Shown: one piece after another, positions 7,868 to 64,000 of the stretch
How the letters are laid out: each line of letters starts with the position of its first letter
Numbering within the stretch: the first letter of the stretch is position 1
Assembly: GCA_016875635.1 (NCBI GenBank)
Contig: VGPD01000006.1
Span: 5,229-69,228, forward strand
Source: Chloroflexota bacterium
Lineage (GTDB): Bacteria > Chloroflexota > Dehalococcoidia > UBA2979
Direction of reading: 5' to 3'
Length of the DNA: 64,000 nt
Notes under the pieces: generated by a model
What the model was told of the DNA's origin: nothing
The model's database searches: none
Seen by the model: only the letters and a program-made list of their open reading frames with translations
Program-made: the position numbers and the translations under genes

Positions 7868-8617
7868 TTGCCCGCAACCGTATCCCCCGCACCGCCGACG
7901 GCCCTGCCGCCCTCCCGCTGGCGTCTGTCCGACCTCGCGGCCGGCCTCGCGCTGCTGCTGCTTGGCTACGCGGTGCTGCTGGGTGTGCTCGTGGGGGTTT
8001 CGCTCGCACTGGGTGTTGACCCGGAACTGGACACCGCGGGTGCGCTGGTCGCGGCCACGGTCACCCTGTTCCTGGAGGCGTGGATCGGTTGCGTTGTCTG
8101 GCTCGTCGCCCGCCGCCGGGGAATCGGCGGGGTCGACCTTGGCCTCGACCCGCCGCAGTCGTGGCTGCCAGTCGGCTACGCGGTCGCCGGTGCCTACGCC
8201 TCCCTGATCGTCTACGGCCTCGCCATCCTGGCGGTCGAACGGCTCACGGGCGCTGACCTCGGTCTGTTGAAGGAGGGGAACGGGATCCCGGACTCGCCGG
8301 CCAACACCTCGGCCGTGTGGTTCGTCCTCGGGGTCAGCGTCATGGCGCTGGCGCCGCTGTCGGAGGAGGTGTTCTTCCGGGGGTTCCTGTTCCGGGCCGT
8401 CCACGGACGGATGGGGCTGGCGGCCGGCCTGATCCTCTCCGCGCTGGCGTTTTCCCTGTTCCACCTCAACGTGGGGGTGATCCTGCCGTTCTTCTTGATC
8501 GGCCTCATCTTCGCGTGGGCGTACCATGCCTCCGGGTCGCTCTGGACGCCCATTGCCGCACACGCGATCTTTAACTCCGTCTCCTTTGTCGCAACGCTCG
8601 CGGGGGTGGGTTCGTGA
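7868..8617 (+). CDS. CPBP family intramembrane metalloprotease (CAAX protease / Abi-like)
   Basis: Multi-TM protein carrying EEVFFRGFLF and FSLFH motifs. Confidence 0.75.
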   Translation: MPATVSPAPPTALPPSRWRLSDLAAGLALLLLGYAVLLGVLVGVSLALGVDPELDTAGALVAATVTLFLEAWIGCVVWLVARRRGIGGVDLGLDPPQSWLPVGYAVAGAYASLIVYGLAILAVERLTGADLGLLKEGNGIPDSPANTSAVWFVLGVSVMALAPLSEEVFFRGFLFRAVHGRMGLAAGLILSALAFSLFHLNVGVILPFFLIGLIFAWAYHASGSLWTPIAAHAIFNSVSFVATLAGVGS

Positions 8618-9411
8618 CCGACCGGCTGGCCGAGATGTTCGCCCGTACGCGAGCGGAGCACCGCCCGGCGGTGCTCCCATTCCTTCCGGCGGGCTGGCCC
8701 GAGCTGGACGATACGGTTCGCCTCGTGGAGGCCGCGATCGAGGGTGGCGCGGACGGGTTCGAGATCGGGATGCCCTTCTCCGACCCGCTGGGAGACGGTC
8801 CCGTGAACCAGGTCGCCTACACCCGGGCGATCGCCAACGGCTGCACGGCCGAGACGGTCTTCGAGGCCGTCCGGACGCTTCGCTCACGGGGGGTTCGCGC
8901 CCCCTTACTCGTTATGGGATACTTCAACACCATTCTGGCCCACGGGCTGGAGCGGTTCGTGGAGGACGCTGCGTCCGCCGGCGTCGATGGCTTCATTGTG
9001 GTTGACCTGCCTCCTCAGGAGGCAGGGGAACTCGAGGGCCTGGTACGTGCGGCGGGCCTGCATATGGTGTATCTGTTGCCACCGACGGCGACGCCGGATC
9101 GGATCCGGCTCATCGCAGAGCATGGCAGCGGGTTCATTTACTGCGTGGGCTTCGTCGGTATCACCGGCGAGCGCGCGGAGGTCTCCAGCGAGCTGCCCGG
9201 GCTGCTGTCCCGGGTGCGCGAGCAGACGGACCTGCCGCTCGCGGTGGGGTTCGGTATCTCCCGGCGCGAGCATGTGCGCGCCATCGGGGAACTTGCCGAC
9301 GGAGTGGTGATTGGCAGCGCCTTCGTCCGCTCCGTGGCGGAGGCGTCCAGCGAGGAACGGCCGGCCGTGGCGCGGCGGTTCCTGGAGGAGATTACCGGTC
9401 GTGTGTCGTAA
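8614..9411 (+). CDS. trpA: tryptophan synthase alpha chain
   Basis: Carries EIGMPFSDPLGDGP and GFGIS motifs. GTGA overlap with the preceding gene. Confidence 0.9.
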   Translation: MTDRLAEMFARTRAEHRPAVLPFLPAGWPELDDTVRLVEAAIEGGADGFEIGMPFSDPLGDGPVNQVAYTRAIANGCTAETVFEAVRTLRSRGVRAPLLVMGYFNTILAHGLERFVEDAASAGVDGFIVVDLPPQEAGELEGLVRAAGLHMVYLLPPTATPDRIRLIAEHGSGFIYCVGFVGITGERAEVSSELPGLLSRVREQTDLPLAVGFGISRREHVRAIGELADGVVIGSAFVRSVAEASSEERPAVARRFLEEITGRVS

Positions 9412-49463: not shown

Positions 49464-49972
49464 CGCTGCCTCTCTTTCTCGCGCGGCCCCCGTATAGATT
49501 TACCCGTGCTGGAAGCCCGGGCAGGACGGCGACCTACCTGTTCTCGAATCGACTTCCGAGTATGGCGCAGGCGTCGCTGAGACGCCAACGGTCTCGAAAA
49601 CTGGGAACGGGTGAGTCTCCAACCGACCCACTTTCGGGAATTTCCGGGGGAGTCTCGAAAAAACGTGTGACACGAACGGATGTTCCACGTGAAACGCGGA
49701 CGGTAGATTCGATCCGCGGGGTTTCGGGGGCTCTGACCTCGATCCGGAGGGGGCGATGTGGATGCGCCAGATCCCCGTATTTGAGCCGGGTCGACTCAGA
49801 TCCGGGTGTGCCAGATCCCCGTAGTTGAGCCAGGTTGGCTCAGGATCTCTGAGCCGGTGGGGCTCGTGTAACAGCGTCCTGTGACAGGAGCGGGTTGGTG
49901 GTCGCGCTGATGTCGTTGTCGCGTGCGCGGGGAGGTGCCTAGACTCGGGGCATCCGTGTTCCGGGAGGTCAC

Positions 49973-50335: not shown

Positions 50336-50351
50336 GGGCGCTCCCCAACCG

Positions 50352-50490
50352 TTGAACTCGTGAGTCGTAGCGTCTGTCGCGCCGGAGCCCTCACCCCCTG
50401 CCCCCGCTGTGTTCTGGGGGCGCTCCTCAGGCCTCGAACTTGTGAGTCGCGGCGTCTGTCGCGCCGGAGCCCCCACCCCCTGCCCCCTCT
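50352..50490. repeat. tandem pair of roughly 50-nt GC-rich repeat units (CGAACTYGTGAGTCG..GCGTCTGTCGCGCCGGAGCCCYCACCCCCTGCCCC), each followed by a hairpin
   Basis: The two copies, at about 50352-50406 and 50433-50487, are about 90% identical. The CCCCCTGCCCC core recurs at least 4-5 times between 50390 and 51210. Confidence 0.6.
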
Positions 50491-50669
50491 CCAGCATGGC
50501 GGGAGAGGGGGATCCGGATTGCCCTCCCCCTGCCCCCTTCCTGGCCGGGAGGGGTGGGCTTCGCGTTTCGCTGAGTGAGGGTTGACGACGTGTCGTCGAG
50601 TGCGGGCTTCGTGTCTCCGATGAATACGATCCAGGCGTGTGACGGGTGGTCGAGGGATCGAGGGCTGTC

Positions 50670-51143: not shown

Positions 51144-51224
51144 CGGTCGAGGTCTTTTGTTCCGTTGCATCCGTACCGCCGTCGCGTTGCGACGAGCGGC
51201 CCATCCCCTGCCCCTTCCCTCGGG

Positions 51225-51300
51225 GAAGGAGTTGAAAACCTGGAGATCACCCACACCCCCCGGCCCCCTCGCCCTCGAGGGCGAGGGGGAGACCGGATCT
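51225..51300. repeat. palindromic repeat unit copy 1 (CACCCACACCCCCCGGCCCCCTCGCCCTCGAGGGCGAGGGGGAG...)
   Basis: Contains a perfect 18-nt palindrome CTCGCCCTCGAGGGCGAG. A second copy lies at about 51480-51560. It is associated with the shared 30-nt CTGGCCGGGAGGGGTGGGCTTCGCGTTTCG, present at 50535 and 51365. Confidence 0.6.
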
Positions 51301-51477
51301 GGATCGGGGAGGCTGGTGGCTGGTCCTCGTGGTCGTTCTTTTCCCGGCTCGCCGTCTCCCTGCGCCTCACTGGCCGGGAGGGGTGGGCTTCGCGTTTCGG
51401 GTGGGTGAGGACCAGCTCGGCGTTGCTGGGTGCGAGGCTCCGGGTGTCCGGAGGTGGGGCGGTCGGTTGAGAGTTTG

Positions 51478-51560
51478 AGGTCACCCACACCCCCCGGCCC
51501 CCTTCGCCCTCGAGGGCGAGGGGGAGGCCAGAGCGGGATGGGGGAGGCTGACGGGCTGGT
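51478..51560. repeat. palindromic repeat unit copy 2
   Basis: About 90% identical to copy 1 at 51225-51300. Confidence 0.6.
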
Positions 51561-51836
51561 CTACGTGGCCGGTCGCGTCGCGAGGGGTTCCTCTTCACCG
51601 GTTTTTTCGGGCTGTGGGCCTCTTGAATCTCGCCAATCCTTGGGGTTGTAGTGGAGATTCCACTGGTGCTGGGGCGCGCGGGGGGCGATCCTTTTGGCCA
51701 GCGGTGGATCGCCCGTTTGGGGCCTCCGCGGAAGCTGGAGCATCCGGTGATCCTGGCGTCCGAGTCTCGCACCTCCCGCAACCGTGGCGCGGAGCCGACT
51801 GCCTCACCGCATGTCGCGAACATTGCCGCGAACCGG

Positions 51837-52223: not shown

Positions 52224-52517
52224 GCCGGGCGAAGCGCGACGCCCCGTCCGCCCGGACGCGGCCACTGTGGTGCATGGAGGCCGCGCGCCGTTTCCACCGA
52301 GGCGAGTCGCCGGGGTGTCGAAACGCACTCCGTTTGTGGGGCAATGGCTCTACCTTCGCGCAGGCCGGGTGGCAATATGGCGCCGGGAGAGCGTGTCGAC
52401 GCCGAGTGTCGGGAGCACCCCGGGACGAGTCGTTTTGTCCCCCACCTTAACCATTCCTTGACCATTCCTTAACCCTACGGGGAGTGCGGAACGTTCCGTG
52501 GGCGTTCGTATACTCCC

Positions 52518-52543
52518 GATTCTGACGCTCGCACGTCAGAATC
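52518..52543. promoter_or_regulatory. perfect inverted repeat GATTCTGACG-n6-CGTCAGAATC, candidate operator upstream of the large secreted protein gene
   Basis: 10-nt perfect arms, 40 nt upstream of the start at 52584. It lies in a lower-GC stretch containing a TATACT -10-like hexamer. Confidence 0.5.
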
Positions 52544-52583
52544 GTTCACCTGTTCTCGCATTTTCAGGGCATCGGAGGCGGAG

Positions 52584-54938
52584 TTGAAGTTATCCAGATT
52601 ACGGTCCTTGGTGGCTCGCGGGGGCGCCGCCGGGCTGATCGCCCTCGCGGCGTTCACCATCCTCCTACTCAACCCGGCTGAACCTCGCGTCGCCAGTGCG
52701 ACCAGCGTGGTCTTCACCAGCGGCTCCGATGTCGATACGTGGGATCCGATTCTCCCCGCCTCGGCGTACCAGAACTGGCCCGCGACGGTCTGCACGCCGA
52801 CGCCCGCGGTCGGCCTCGGCGCCGCCTGGACGAACCCGCACAAGGCCTCGTCCTTCGGGACGGCCGCCCACCCGTGTCAGCCTGGTGCGGGCTTCACGGC
52901 GAACTGGATCAACGCGTGGGCCGACATGAACTCGCAGGGCCCGAGCGGGCACAGCTGGACGAAGTACTCCACCACGGTTTCGGGTAGCGGCGCGTTCGTG
53001 CTGAACCTGCTCGCCGACAACTGCTCGTGGATTTACCTGGACGGCACGCTCGTGGGCTTCCAGGACACGACGCTCACCCCGCGAACGTAACCAGTGACGC
53101 TCTCGGGTTCGCACACGCTTGAGTTCTCGTTTTTTGACGGTGGCGGTTTGGCTGGCGGCATGTACCGCCTGGAGACCGACACCGGAACCGTGTTCGTGGA
53201 CACGGACTCGGACGGGCTCACCGACGCGCAGGAGCATCTGCACGGTACTGATAAGACCAACCACGACTCCGACGGCGACGGCGTCAGCGATGGCGCCGAG
53301 GTCCAGGCGGGCACGAACCCGCTGGTGGATCCGGCTTCGGCGACGCTCGGGGCGACTGCGTGGCAGGGCCAGCGGCCGTACGGGCCGGTGCAGACGCCCG
53401 CGTTCTCGCCGTTGGGCGCGATCGCGTTCTACAACTACATCCCGGCACCAGGTGTCCCGGGCGCGACCGACCCCAGCTGGGCGGCGTGTGGTCCCGGCAA
53501 CCCGCTGTGCCCGAGCGCGAACACCATCGGCCTGAACAACCCGTATGGCTCGCGGCTCGGCGGTTCGTTCGCATGTGGAGCCTCGGCTGACTACACGTTC
53601 TACCAGGCGTTCGTCAGCATCCCCTGGGGGACGACGATCAATGAGTTCAAGGTCGTCATGAGTGGCGCCGACGATGGAGCGCGAGTGGCGATCTACAACG
53701 CTGCCTTCCCCGGCGGCCAGGTACTCCCGGGTGCGTACATCTTCCTGGGTGGGGCGCAGACCACGACCGACCTGTCGTCAGCGATGCGCGCGGGCCAGGT
53801 GAACCGCGTTGTCACCACCCAGATGGACAACTGCGCGACCGGCAACAACCTGCAGTCGGCGCAGATCTTCCTCAACGGGACGGTGATCGCGCCGCCGCCG
53901 TCGGACACGACGCCGCCGGTGATCACGCCGACGGTGACGGGCACGCTGGGTGACAGCGGCTGGTACACGAGCAACGTCAACGTCTCGTGGACGGTGACCG
54001 ACTCGAACTCGGCCATCACGTCGCAGACGGGCTGCGGCCCGACGACGGTGTCCGTGGACACGGCTAGCGTCACGTTCACCTGTACGGCCACCTCGGCCGG
54101 TGGGATGGCCTCGCAGAGCGTCACCTTGAAGCGTGACGCGACGGCGCCGGTGGCGACCGCGACGGCGGCCCCAGCGCCGAACGGGAATGGTTGGAACAAC
54201 ACCGGCGTGACGGTGACCTTCACCGGCACGGACGGGCTGTCCGGCATCGCCTCCTGCACCGCTGCGGCGGTCCTGGTCGAGGGCGCGGGCCAGTCGGCCA
54301 GCGGCACCTGCACGGACAACGCGGGCAACGTCAGCGATCCGGCGACGGCGTCGGACATCAACGTTGACAAGACCAACCCGGTGGTGGCGGTGACGGGCGT
54401 GACGGACGGCGCGACGTACAACGTCGGCGGCGTCCCGGCCGCGGGCTGCACCACGACCGACGCGCTGTCGGGCGTGGCGACCCCGGCGACGCTCTCGACC
54501 GCGGGCGGGCCGCTGGCCACGGTGACGGTGACGTGCGCCGGGGCCACCGACGAGGCGGGCAACGCCGCTCCGGCGGTGACGGCGACGTACTCCGTGACCT
54601 ACGCCTTCTGCGGCTTCAAGCAGCCGCTGCTGGTGCCGGTCCAGGAGTTAAAGACGGGCTCGACCATCCCGGTGAAGTTCTGCGTGCAGGACGCCAACGG
54701 GGTCACGGTGACGACGGCGACCGGCACGGTGGAGGCCTACGTGAACGGCGTCCTGAAGGGCACGGTCGCGTTCCGCTTCTCGGACGGCCAGTACATCGCC
54801 AATTTCCAGACGAAGGACGGCAAGACTGACTGGCCGACGGGGACGCTGGAGTTGCGCGTCAAGCTGAATGACGGCACGACGCAGTCCACCAACGCTCTCT
54901 CGACGAGCGGCGTGAAAGGTGGCCTGAAGCTCAAGTAG
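52584..54938 (+). CDS. large secreted adhesin-like protein (PA14/lectin-like N-domain, thrombospondin-type-3 Ca-binding D-x-D-x-DG repeats, multiple Ig-like repeats), interrupted by one in-frame TAA at 53088..53090
   Basis: ORFs 52584..53090 and 53094..54938 share one frame. The protein reads straight through the stop (LVGFQDTTLTPRT*PVTLSGSHTLEFSFFDGGG). It has an N-terminal signal peptide, DTDSDGLTDAQE / DSDGDGVSDGAE calcium-binding repeats, and repeated TVT/TGT-rich Ig-like modules. Confidence 0.65.
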
Positions 54939-54962
54939 CGCGTCGCGTCTGACATGAGACGA

Positions 54963-54995
54963 GAAGGCCCGCCGAAAGGCGGGCCTTCTTGTTCC
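54963..54995 (+). terminator. rho-independent terminator (GAAGGCCCGCC-gaaa-GGCGGGCCTTC TTGTTCC)
   Basis: A perfect 11-bp stem with a GAAA loop is followed by a T-rich tract, 25 nt after the adhesin stop. Confidence 0.8.
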
Positions 54996-63264: not shown

Positions 63265-64000
63265 TTACAGCACCGCGAACGACAGTGAGCCGGCGACGCG
63301 GCCCTGCAGCGACCACGGCGTGACCTGGTCGACGGTCACGCGCACGAGGTCGCCCACGCGCCCGGTCGCGTCGAAGTGGACGAGTTGCCCCCGGCGCGTC
63401 CGGCCGGTGGAGCGCCCGTCCTGCTCCGACTCCACGAGGACCTCGACGGTCTGGTTGAGCAGACGCTGGTTGATGCGCGCGGAGGAGGCCGCGTGCAACT
63501 CCTCGATGACGTGGAGGCGGGCCTTCTTCACCTCGCGCGGCACATCGTCGGCCATGTTCCGATGGGCGAAGGTGCCGGGGCGGGGCGAGTAGGCAGCGAC
63601 GTGGATCGTGTCGAACTGCGTGCGCTCGATGAGCGCGACCGTGTCGGCGAACTCCTCGTCCGTCTCGCCGGGGCAGCCGACGATGACGTCGGTGACGATG
63701 GCGGCGTCCGGCATCCGGCTGCGGATCCGCGCGACGCGCTCCTCGAACTCCGCGACGGTGTAGCCGCGGCGCATCCGCCCGAGCATCGATTCCGACCCCG
63801 ACTGCACGGGGATGTTGAAGAACTCGCAGACCTTCGGTTGGTCGGCGACGGCGTCGATGATGCGGTCGGTCATGTCCTTCGGGTAGGAGGTGAGGAAGCG
63901 CACGCGCTGTATGCCGTCGATGGCGTCGATGCCCTCGAAGAGGGTGGCGAGGTCGGGGCGGCTGCCGTCCGGGGCGGCGAGGTCGTGCCCGTAGGCCTCG
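63265..64000 (-). CDS. radical-SAM methylthiotransferase, MiaB/RimO family (C-terminal part; start beyond window end)
   Basis: Radical-SAM distal motifs (IPVQSGSESMLGRMRRGYT, GCPGETDEEF) and a C-terminal TRAM domain. The ORF continues past 64000. Confidence 0.8.
   Translation of the reverse strand, partial: EAYGHDLAAPDGSRPDLATLFEGIDAIDGIQRVRFLTSYPKDMTDRIIDAVADQPKVCEFFNIPVQSGSESMLGRMRRGYTVAEFEERVARIRSRMPDAAIVTDVIVGCPGETDEEFADTVALIERTQFDTIHVAAYSPRPGTFAHRNMADDVPREVKKARLHVIEELHAASSARINQRLLNQTVEVLVESEQDGRSTGRTRRGQLVHFDATGRVGDLVRVTVDQVTPWSLQGRVAGSLSFAVL

Follow-up and report, generated by a model that had tools for sequence, protein, structure and literature searches.

How is a gene to be read that is open from its start to its natural end except for one stop codon in between? 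This question is raised by a locus in the 64-kb stretch of Chloroflexota DNA analysed here (the window), in which one frame runs from a TTG at 52584 to a TAG at 54936-54938. The frame comprises 785 codons if both stops are included (783 of them sense), and its sole internal stop is a TAA at 53088-53090, codon 169. There are 168 codons before this TAA, and the frame after it is open from 53091 to the TAG ending at 54938, such that the peptide around the stop reads LVGFQDTTLTPRT-TAA-PVTLSGSHTLEFSFFDGG. A first-pass annotation of this DNA had placed two ORFs (52584..53090 and 53094..54938) in the same frame and had estimated the length of their joint product at about 780 aa. Its coordinates and the peptide context that it quoted are exact, and the length agrees with our count of sense codons. 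In GenBank, the halves appear as two hypothetical proteins, MBM4410215.1 (159 aa) and MBM4410216.1 (614 aa).

Three explanations for the stop had been left side by side in the first-pass annotation, namely a recent nonsense pseudogene, a sequencing error, or a gene that is subject to read-through or phase variation. Our analysis favours the first of these, in view of the conserved Tyr at this site and the presence of the stop in two sequence variants, and it speaks against the other two. Judged by comparative sequence analysis, it is quite probable that the locus represents a single gene, which codes for a secreted protein of ~783 aa and carries a recent and genuine TAC>TAA loss-of-function allele, and that it is in effect a pseudogene.

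The reading frame and the protein it encodes

Along the frame, the following features can be placed:

52574..52578, + strand: Shine-Dalgarno sequence GGAGG, 5 nt 5' of the TTG start
52584..52700, + strand: TTG start and signal peptide, codons 1-39, assigned by inspection
52701..53087, + strand: N-terminal jelly-roll domain, its first ~129 codons up to the stop, belonging to no Pfam family
53088..53090, + strand: in-frame TAA in place of a conserved Tyr codon, C>A at the third codon position
53091..53195, + strand: last strands of the N-terminal domain, cut off by the stop, with a near-invariant FDGGG-AGGM-RLET motif
53196..53327, + strand: two bacterial thrombospondin type-3 (TSP3) calcium-binding repeats, Pfam PF18884
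53328..53900, + strand: middle domain of ~190 aa, common to L007 (see below), P0089 and others
53901..54596, + strand: tandem Ig-like beta-sandwich modules, AF2 pLDDT >90
54597..54938, + strand: C-terminal PxKF-like domain (TIPVKF) and natural TAG stop, a sub-threshold match to NCBIfam NF038114

By inspection, the amino terminus has the typical features of a Sec signal peptide, that is, a K/R-rich start, a hydrophobic core and an RVASA cleavage motif followed by T. A near-identical signal peptide is found in two related loci, L004 and L007, and the signal peptide proposed in the first-pass annotation is thus borne out.

For the N-terminal domain, an AlphaFold model was made of P0003, a homolog with 73% identity, and this domain is predicted to form a beta jelly-roll (pLDDT 91). 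The conserved Tyr corresponds to Y145 of P0003, at the start of strands 144-162 and 168-174. The best PDB matches of the model, obtained with Foldseek, are GH2 N-terminal sugar-binding domains together with the Ig-like domain that follows them, and a PA14-containing beta-glucosidase is also among the matches. The predicted likeness to the GH2 N-terminal sugar-binding domain and to the PA14 domain of the Kluyveromyces beta-glucosidase (3abz) thus lies in the jelly-roll fold, with Foldseek probabilities of 0.99-1.00. However, the TM-scores are low, the matches span several domains, and the protein has no match to Pfam PA14 (PF07691) or GH2_N at E<=1. Of the lectin/PA14-like N-domain that had been proposed earlier, the likeness at the level of the fold is retained, but there is no Pfam PA14 match to go with it.

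The thrombospondin type-3-like repeats are recognized by Pfam TSP3_bac (PF18884) in two stretches and above the gathering score (46.9 bits vs a cut-off of 25, E=2.3e-12), in agreement with the earlier proposal; besides TSP3_bac, the only Pfam match is a weak one to DUF6667 within the Ig-like stretch. As in other bacterial TSP3 proteins (PF18884), among them the Myxococcus cell-cell cohesion protein MtsD (NF047639), the repeats are of the DxDxDGxxDxxE calcium-binding kind. However, NF047639 matches the repeat stretch only, with 21 bits against a cut-off of 800, and the architecture is a different one; the window protein is not an ortholog of MtsD.

In a model of ORF2, pLDDT is below 60 over the TSP3 and middle-domain parts, whereas three to four Ig-like modules and the C-terminal domain are predicted with confidence. 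The Ig-like modules find titin, complement C3 MG domains and S-layer proteins as Foldseek matches, and model and structure search together support the multiple Ig-like modules that the first reading of the sequence had suggested. The C-terminal domain of ~110 aa resembles that of PxKF proteins (NF038114) and has their P-V-K-F motif; the match extends over model positions 2-109 of 113 and, at 29.7 bits (E=6e-7), stays under the curated cut-off of 35. Taken together, sequence and models make it reasonable to assume a secreted protein of a carbohydrate-binding or adhesion type, the label "adhesin" being a putative one that is drawn from the domain content.

Other adjacent same-frame ORF pairs of the window, as brought up by a GC3 screen, are separate and unrelated neighbouring genes, and no further interrupted gene besides 52584-54938 was detected in the 64 kb. 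A change in the genetic code that would make TAA a sense codon was considered as well and was rejected, given these unrelated pairs and the fact that TAA ends trpA (8614-9411; stop at 9409-9411) and a miaB-like gene (63265-63903; stop at 63265-63267).

The ancestral codon and the reality of the stop

A search with the first 439 residues of the protein in a collection of 5.8 billion clusters returned many homologs in which the N-terminal domain is followed by TSP3 repeats, and the matches from a profile search of a library of 1.84 billion representatives are dominated by giant TSP3-repeat proteins. We aligned 96 homologs, 93 of which are aligned at the column of the stop. The residue at this column is Tyr in 89/93, Phe in 3/93 and His in 1/93, and the two columns after it are Pro (93/93) and Val (92/93). 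A scan of one genome per species yielded 31 loci, 30 of which align across the Tyr site; L014 showed the matching motif in the later DNA scan only and is counted there. A stop at the aligned site was found in none of the 93 proteins and none of the 30 genome loci, the latter all having a sense codon (TAC or TAT in 29, CAC in one), and the matched region of the N-domain is free of any stop in 30 of the 31 loci. In the high-GC (Chloroflexota) relatives that were checked at the DNA level, the codon is TAC. By this comparison, the ancestral codon is TAC (Tyr), and the lesion is a TAC>TAA change of a single base.

The ortholog of the gene is L007, a locus in a Dehalococcoidia MAG from groundwater whose product has 77% protein identity and which has dtd upstream, as in the window. 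It shares the signal peptide, N-domain, TSP3 repeats, middle domain and Ig modules, it reads ...LPRTYPVTLSGTHTLEFIIFDGGG... across the site without interruption, and it is open for at least 640 codons; we regard this as true orthology. According to the first-pass annotation, the notion of one interrupted gene would fall if orthologs turned out to be two separate genes with independent starts. This is not what is found, because the homologs as well as L007 read through the site, L007 being one continuous gene.

Is the TAA itself real? The same stop is present in three assemblies, namely the MAG contig of the window, the JGI contig Ga0194131_10046538 of metagenome 3300020193 (L002), and the Logan assembly of SRR7990526 (L001). 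The 24 samples from Lake Tanganyika to which metagenome 3300020193 belongs were sequenced with Illumina 2x150 and each assembled separately with metaSPAdes (bioRxiv 10.1101/834861). Over 7.4 kb (L001) and 3.0 kb (L002), the two sequences match the window letter for letter, with the TAA included, except for one pair of indels:

53126..53130, + strand: compensated indel pair, window compared with L001/L002, 36-40 nt 3' of the stop

At this position, L001 and L002 have GAGTTCATCGTTTTTGAC (EFIVFD), whereas the window has GAGTTCTCGTTTTTTGAC (EFSFFD). At least two sequence variants and at least two assemblers (JGI metaSPAdes and Logan) thus share the TAA, which makes a consensus error at this codon unlikely, even though L001 and L002 may be from one sample and the three assemblies may have reads in common.

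In principle, the organism might have TAC, and the TAA might be an artefact of the contig consensus. MAG contigs are indeed consensus sequences of a population, and the odd indel pair 36-40 nt away means that the assemblies do not all agree over this stretch. However, an artefact of this kind would have to have produced an identical TAA in three assemblies, by at least two assemblers and in two variants, and substitution errors are rare in an Illumina consensus. The protein collection, moreover, has no recorded intact allele: none at >=90% identity is among the hits of the 5.8-billion-cluster search, and the only match above 75% identity in the collection is the downstream fragment itself. A scan of metagenome contigs, in which an undamaged copy from this population might have appeared, brought up one distant relative, L003, and carries no weight in this respect. 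We therefore consider an error very unlikely indeed, and the stop to be a genuine one.

With respect to the age of the lesion, dN/dS relative to L007 is 0.26 for the N-domain up to the stop and 0.30 for all that follows, at a dS of ~0.5. Because the ratio is similarly low on both sides, the stop is, by this measure, recent, and purifying selection acted on the whole gene while nearly all of the divergence built up. The position that is Ser in the EFSFFD of the window is I, L or V in 93/93 homologs, and the Ser change in the window variant is a second, non-conservative one that came after the stop arose. That the indel pair restores the frame could mean that the downstream frame still matters, or the two indels could go back to one complex mutation. 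In the window protein, Cys moreover takes the place of a near-invariant Trp (W98C), and in all, this protein departs from the family at 5 of 92 highly conserved columns as compared to a family median of 2, a value that is high without being an outlier (~15% of homologs have as many). Such departures from conserved columns are suggestive of some relaxation of constraint.

Lesions in relatives, rival readings and the fate of the gene

The closest environmental relative of the gene is L004/L005, the upstream region being common to both. The C-terminal domain of L004 is 83% nt-identical to the end of the window gene, and after the signal peptide, L004/L005 has an additional glycine-rich domain and ephrin-receptor-like Cys repeats. 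There is an in-frame TAG in L004 at 2367-2369 (...APGTA*VTITFEE...), and the called start of its protein P0016 falls inside a Pfam Ephrin_rec_like repeat; therefore, the gene of L004/L005 is interrupted as well. In L034, which lies on a complete Dehalococcoidia chromosome, a TGG>TAG change has occurred at the invariant Trp of WINAW, and in L038, the 5' end with the signal peptide is replaced by a gene for an IS200/IS605-type transposase. With the window included, this amounts to four independent and different lesions in Chloroflexota-type loci, with the ascertainment bias that L004 and L038 were noticed because their gene calls looked truncated. The N-domains of ~25 loci from other phyla were all free of stops. 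Since the sites of the lesions differ, and in particular since one of them is an IS insertion, the comparison of these sequences is suggestive of recurrent inactivation rather than of a conserved read-through device.

It might be argued that the TAA is read through or suppressed, in a programmed or merely tolerated manner, such that a low and regulated amount of full-length surface protein is made. The gene is otherwise intact and the compensated indel pair keeps its frame, L004/L005 and L034 likewise have a single in-frame UAG in otherwise open genes, all three stops are UAA or UAG, and a pseudogene with a single lesion would look the same in sequence as a gene with low-level read-through. 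However, the three stops are at three different positions, none of which is conserved, and L007 and 29 other aligning genome loci have a sense codon at the site of the TAA, while the fourth relative is disrupted by an IS element and thus beyond rescue by read-through. Both release factors recognize TAA, which shows the least leakage of all stops in those bacteria that have been studied, and both TAA and TAG terminate ordinary genes of the window. Furthermore, the 73 nt 3' of the stop fold no better than their shuffled versions (MFE of -19.1 vs a shuffle mean of -21.4 kcal/mol, z = +0.81), a terminator-like hairpin at 53102-53123 is within chance expectation, and the 64-kb window has no tRNA genes, a suppressor tRNA included. 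Programmed read-through as in the A1 protein of phage Qbeta makes use of a conserved leaky stop, mostly UGA, that stands between functional units. The window gene resembles this case in that its coding sequence would be continuous if it were not for one in-frame stop; unlike in Qbeta A1, its stop is TAA, is not conserved and lies inside a folded domain. We hence give read-through a small chance of being true.

The two halves could also have become functional on their own, as a secreted N-terminal fragment of 168 aa and a protein of 592-614 aa that starts from GTG 53094 or ATG 53157. Gene callers do list separate products (MBM4410215.1, MBM4410216.1 and P0001), and with GTG 53094 located 4 nt after the stop, termination-reinitiation is conceivable. 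Yet the stop is located inside a single folded domain, the GTG at 53094 is not preceded by a Shine-Dalgarno sequence, and the downstream part has no signal peptide, though all of its domains are of extracellular types. When the proteins from the locus in the window itself are left out of the family hits, no hit has its end within the domain, and P0082, truncated by the IS, is the sole one to begin there; a functional split is very unlikely on these grounds. As to reversible phase variation, in which the gene would be a contingency locus, such switching is frequent among surface proteins, and several relatives of the gene are switched off. However, the lesion is a base substitution, and the stop and its surroundings contain neither a homopolymer nor a short tandem repeat (none at 53088-53090, the nearest repeats being at 52445-52474 and 53270-53295). 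Neither does an invertible element flank the promoter; the inverted repeat at 52518-52543 has arms of only 10 nt at a distance of 6 nt. The chance that phase variation applies is negligible.

The preferred reading, a recent loss-of-function allele, would imply the following course of events. A point mutation would have turned TAC (Tyr) into TAA at codon 169 in a Chloroflexota population of Lake Tanganyika. Translation from TTG 52584 would since then end at 53090 and yield a precursor of 168 aa without the last beta-strands of its only domain, the FDGGG-AGGM-RLET motif included, and this precursor would be expected to misfold. The remaining 615 codons would be left with neither a Shine-Dalgarno sequence nor a signal peptide of their own, and a product restarted at GTG 53094 or ATG 53157 would presumably be unable to reach the cell surface. 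Only one further damaging change has been added since, in one of the two variants.

There is a known precedent for such a situation in internalin A of Listeria monocytogenes, a surface protein that is inactivated by natural single nonsense mutations (inlA PMSCs). By analogy, the gene described here would likewise encode a secreted or surface multi-domain protein that has been hit by independent lesions across lineages while otherwise remaining intact. The two cases differ in that the proteins are of unrelated families (jelly-roll/TSP3/Ig here, LRR in internalin A), that the organisms here are uncultured Chloroflexota, and that recurrence is drawn from four loci.

What does this mean for the annotation of the locus? 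MBM4410215.1 and MBM4410216.1 together make up one disrupted gene, for which a pseudogene label is warranted; if they are left as two proteins, such fragments inflate protein families. The event itself is biologically routine and ordinary in kind. The wider point concerns a widespread and as yet unnamed N-terminal jelly-roll family with a TSP3 link that has repeatedly been knocked out in Chloroflexota. These repeated knockouts are a possible marker of a change in lifestyle, or of pressure by phages or grazers, in uncultured bacteria of lakes and groundwater. A recurrent and possibly selected loss of the secreted jelly-roll/TSP3 family in Chloroflexota/Dehalococcoidia is a tentative and somewhat doubtful extension of our findings. 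If selection rather than drift was at work, having the protein would be a disadvantage in some habitats: phages might use it as a receptor, grazers might take hold of the cell by it, or it might be attachment machinery of no use to planktonic cells. Selected loss would then be an environmental counterpart of the inlA truncations.

Leader and 3' end

Outside of the coding sequence, four further features were placed:

52445..52474, + strand: 11-nt tandem repeat CCTTAACCATT, 2.7 copies, upstream of the gene
52509..52514, + strand: -10-like hexamer TATACT, a putative promoter element from the leader alignment
52518..52543, + strand: perfect inverted repeat GATTCTGACG-CTCGCA-CGTCAGAATC with 10-nt arms and a 6-nt spacer
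54962..54989, + strand: GC-rich hairpin AGAAGGCCCGCC-GAAA-GGCGGGCCTTCT, a putative transcription terminator

The leader is conserved across three orthologous loci (the window, L004 and L007), in which the inverted repeat lies directly 3' of the -10-like hexamer. The hexamer reads TATAGT in L004 and TACAAT in L007, and a strict scan found no full sigma-70 promoter upstream of the gene. At the orthologous loci, the CCTTAACCATT repeat is present in a single copy. A perfect inverted repeat like that at 52518-52543 is not expected by chance (none in 100 shuffles). L004 has retained a stem of 7 bp with two compensatory changes of pairs (A-T to G-C and C-G to T-A), whereas L007 has retained the inverted repeat only partly. 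From a comparison of these three sequences, the inverted repeat is probably a hairpin at the 5' terminus of the mRNA or an operator at the start of transcription. The first-pass annotation had placed this 10-nt inverted repeat in the promoter. The repeat is exact as described there, but since it lies just 3' of the conserved TATACT, it is more likely to be located at the start of the transcript or in the 5' UTR.

At the other end of the gene, the hairpin at 54962-54989 probably ends the transcript; it was not picked up by a terminator scan that depends on T-tracts. Searches for RNA families gave no match at gathering score in the window, L004 or L006, and the sub-threshold matches at 54873-54993 all overlap the terminator hairpin.

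Stop codons and other lesions among relatives of the secreted-protein gene

The closest environmental relative of the secreted jelly-roll/TSP3/Ig-like gene carries a stop of its own, an in-frame TAG at L004 2367-2369 (equivalent to L005 2-4), which lies at the end of the glycine-rich domain; the protein called downstream of it, P0016, has its called start within an Ephrin_rec_like repeat. Two further members of the family, both in Chloroflexota-type loci, are also altered. On the Dehalococcoidia chromosome OZ252295.1 (L034), a TGG>TAG change at 3247-3249 hits the WINAW motif at its invariant Trp; apart from this TAG the frame is open to its natural end. In L038 (1901-3000), the family member is without its signal-peptide end, and a transposase gene of the IS200/IS605 type (Y1_Tnp) is found immediately 5′ of it.

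With respect to stop-codon usage, TGA is usually the dominant stop in genomes of 69% GC. Among ORFs with coding-type GC3 across the whole window, TAG was the commonest stop (43 TAG, 25 TGA and 10 TAA), which is unusual at this GC content, though the ORF list underlying this tally takes in some shadow ORFs.

A compensated indel pair after the stop

The sole difference between the window and the two other Lake Tanganyika assemblies of the same locus is a one-base deletion and a one-base insertion, 4 nt apart and mutually compensating, at window 53126-53130 (L001 2752-2755; L002 957-960). The window thereby reads EFSFFD, whereas both other assemblies read EFIVFD; a position that is hydrophobic without exception in the family is no longer so in the window.

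Non-coding elements and repeats upstream

Upstream of the gene, the following features were found:

window 49656-49850 (L004 863-1063; L006 3385-3592): conserved non-coding element, ~190 nt
window 50336-50553 and 51199-51571: GC-rich repeats in the intergenic stretches on either side of dtd
window 52445-52474: 11-nt tandem repeat CCTTAACCATT, 2.7 copies, 5′ of the secreted-protein gene

In an alignment of the three genomes (window, L004 and a further genome locus, L006), the ~190-nt element has a mean column identity of 80%. It contains a GAAC-N4-GTTC motif, resembling a Cheo/LexA box, which adjoins CACGTG, as well as two copies of the hairpin unit GTGTGCCAGAT-N4-GTAGTTGAGCC-loop-GGCTCAG. None of the three copies matched Rfam. 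In L004 and L006 the element lies ~0.5 kb 5′ of homologous secreted-protein genes, and in the window an FmdB-type zinc-ribbon gene lies downstream of it.

The interval between dtd and the DUF454 gene holds two copies of a ~95-nt repeat, each with a 26-nt palindrome, CCCC(C/T)TCGCCCTCGAGGGCGAGGGGG (51264-51289 and 51499-51524); these repeats are REP/MITE-like. As for the tandem repeat, the orthologous loci in L004 and in the groundwater Dehalococcoidia genome L007 carry a single copy of the 11-nt unit, as compared to 2.7 in the window.
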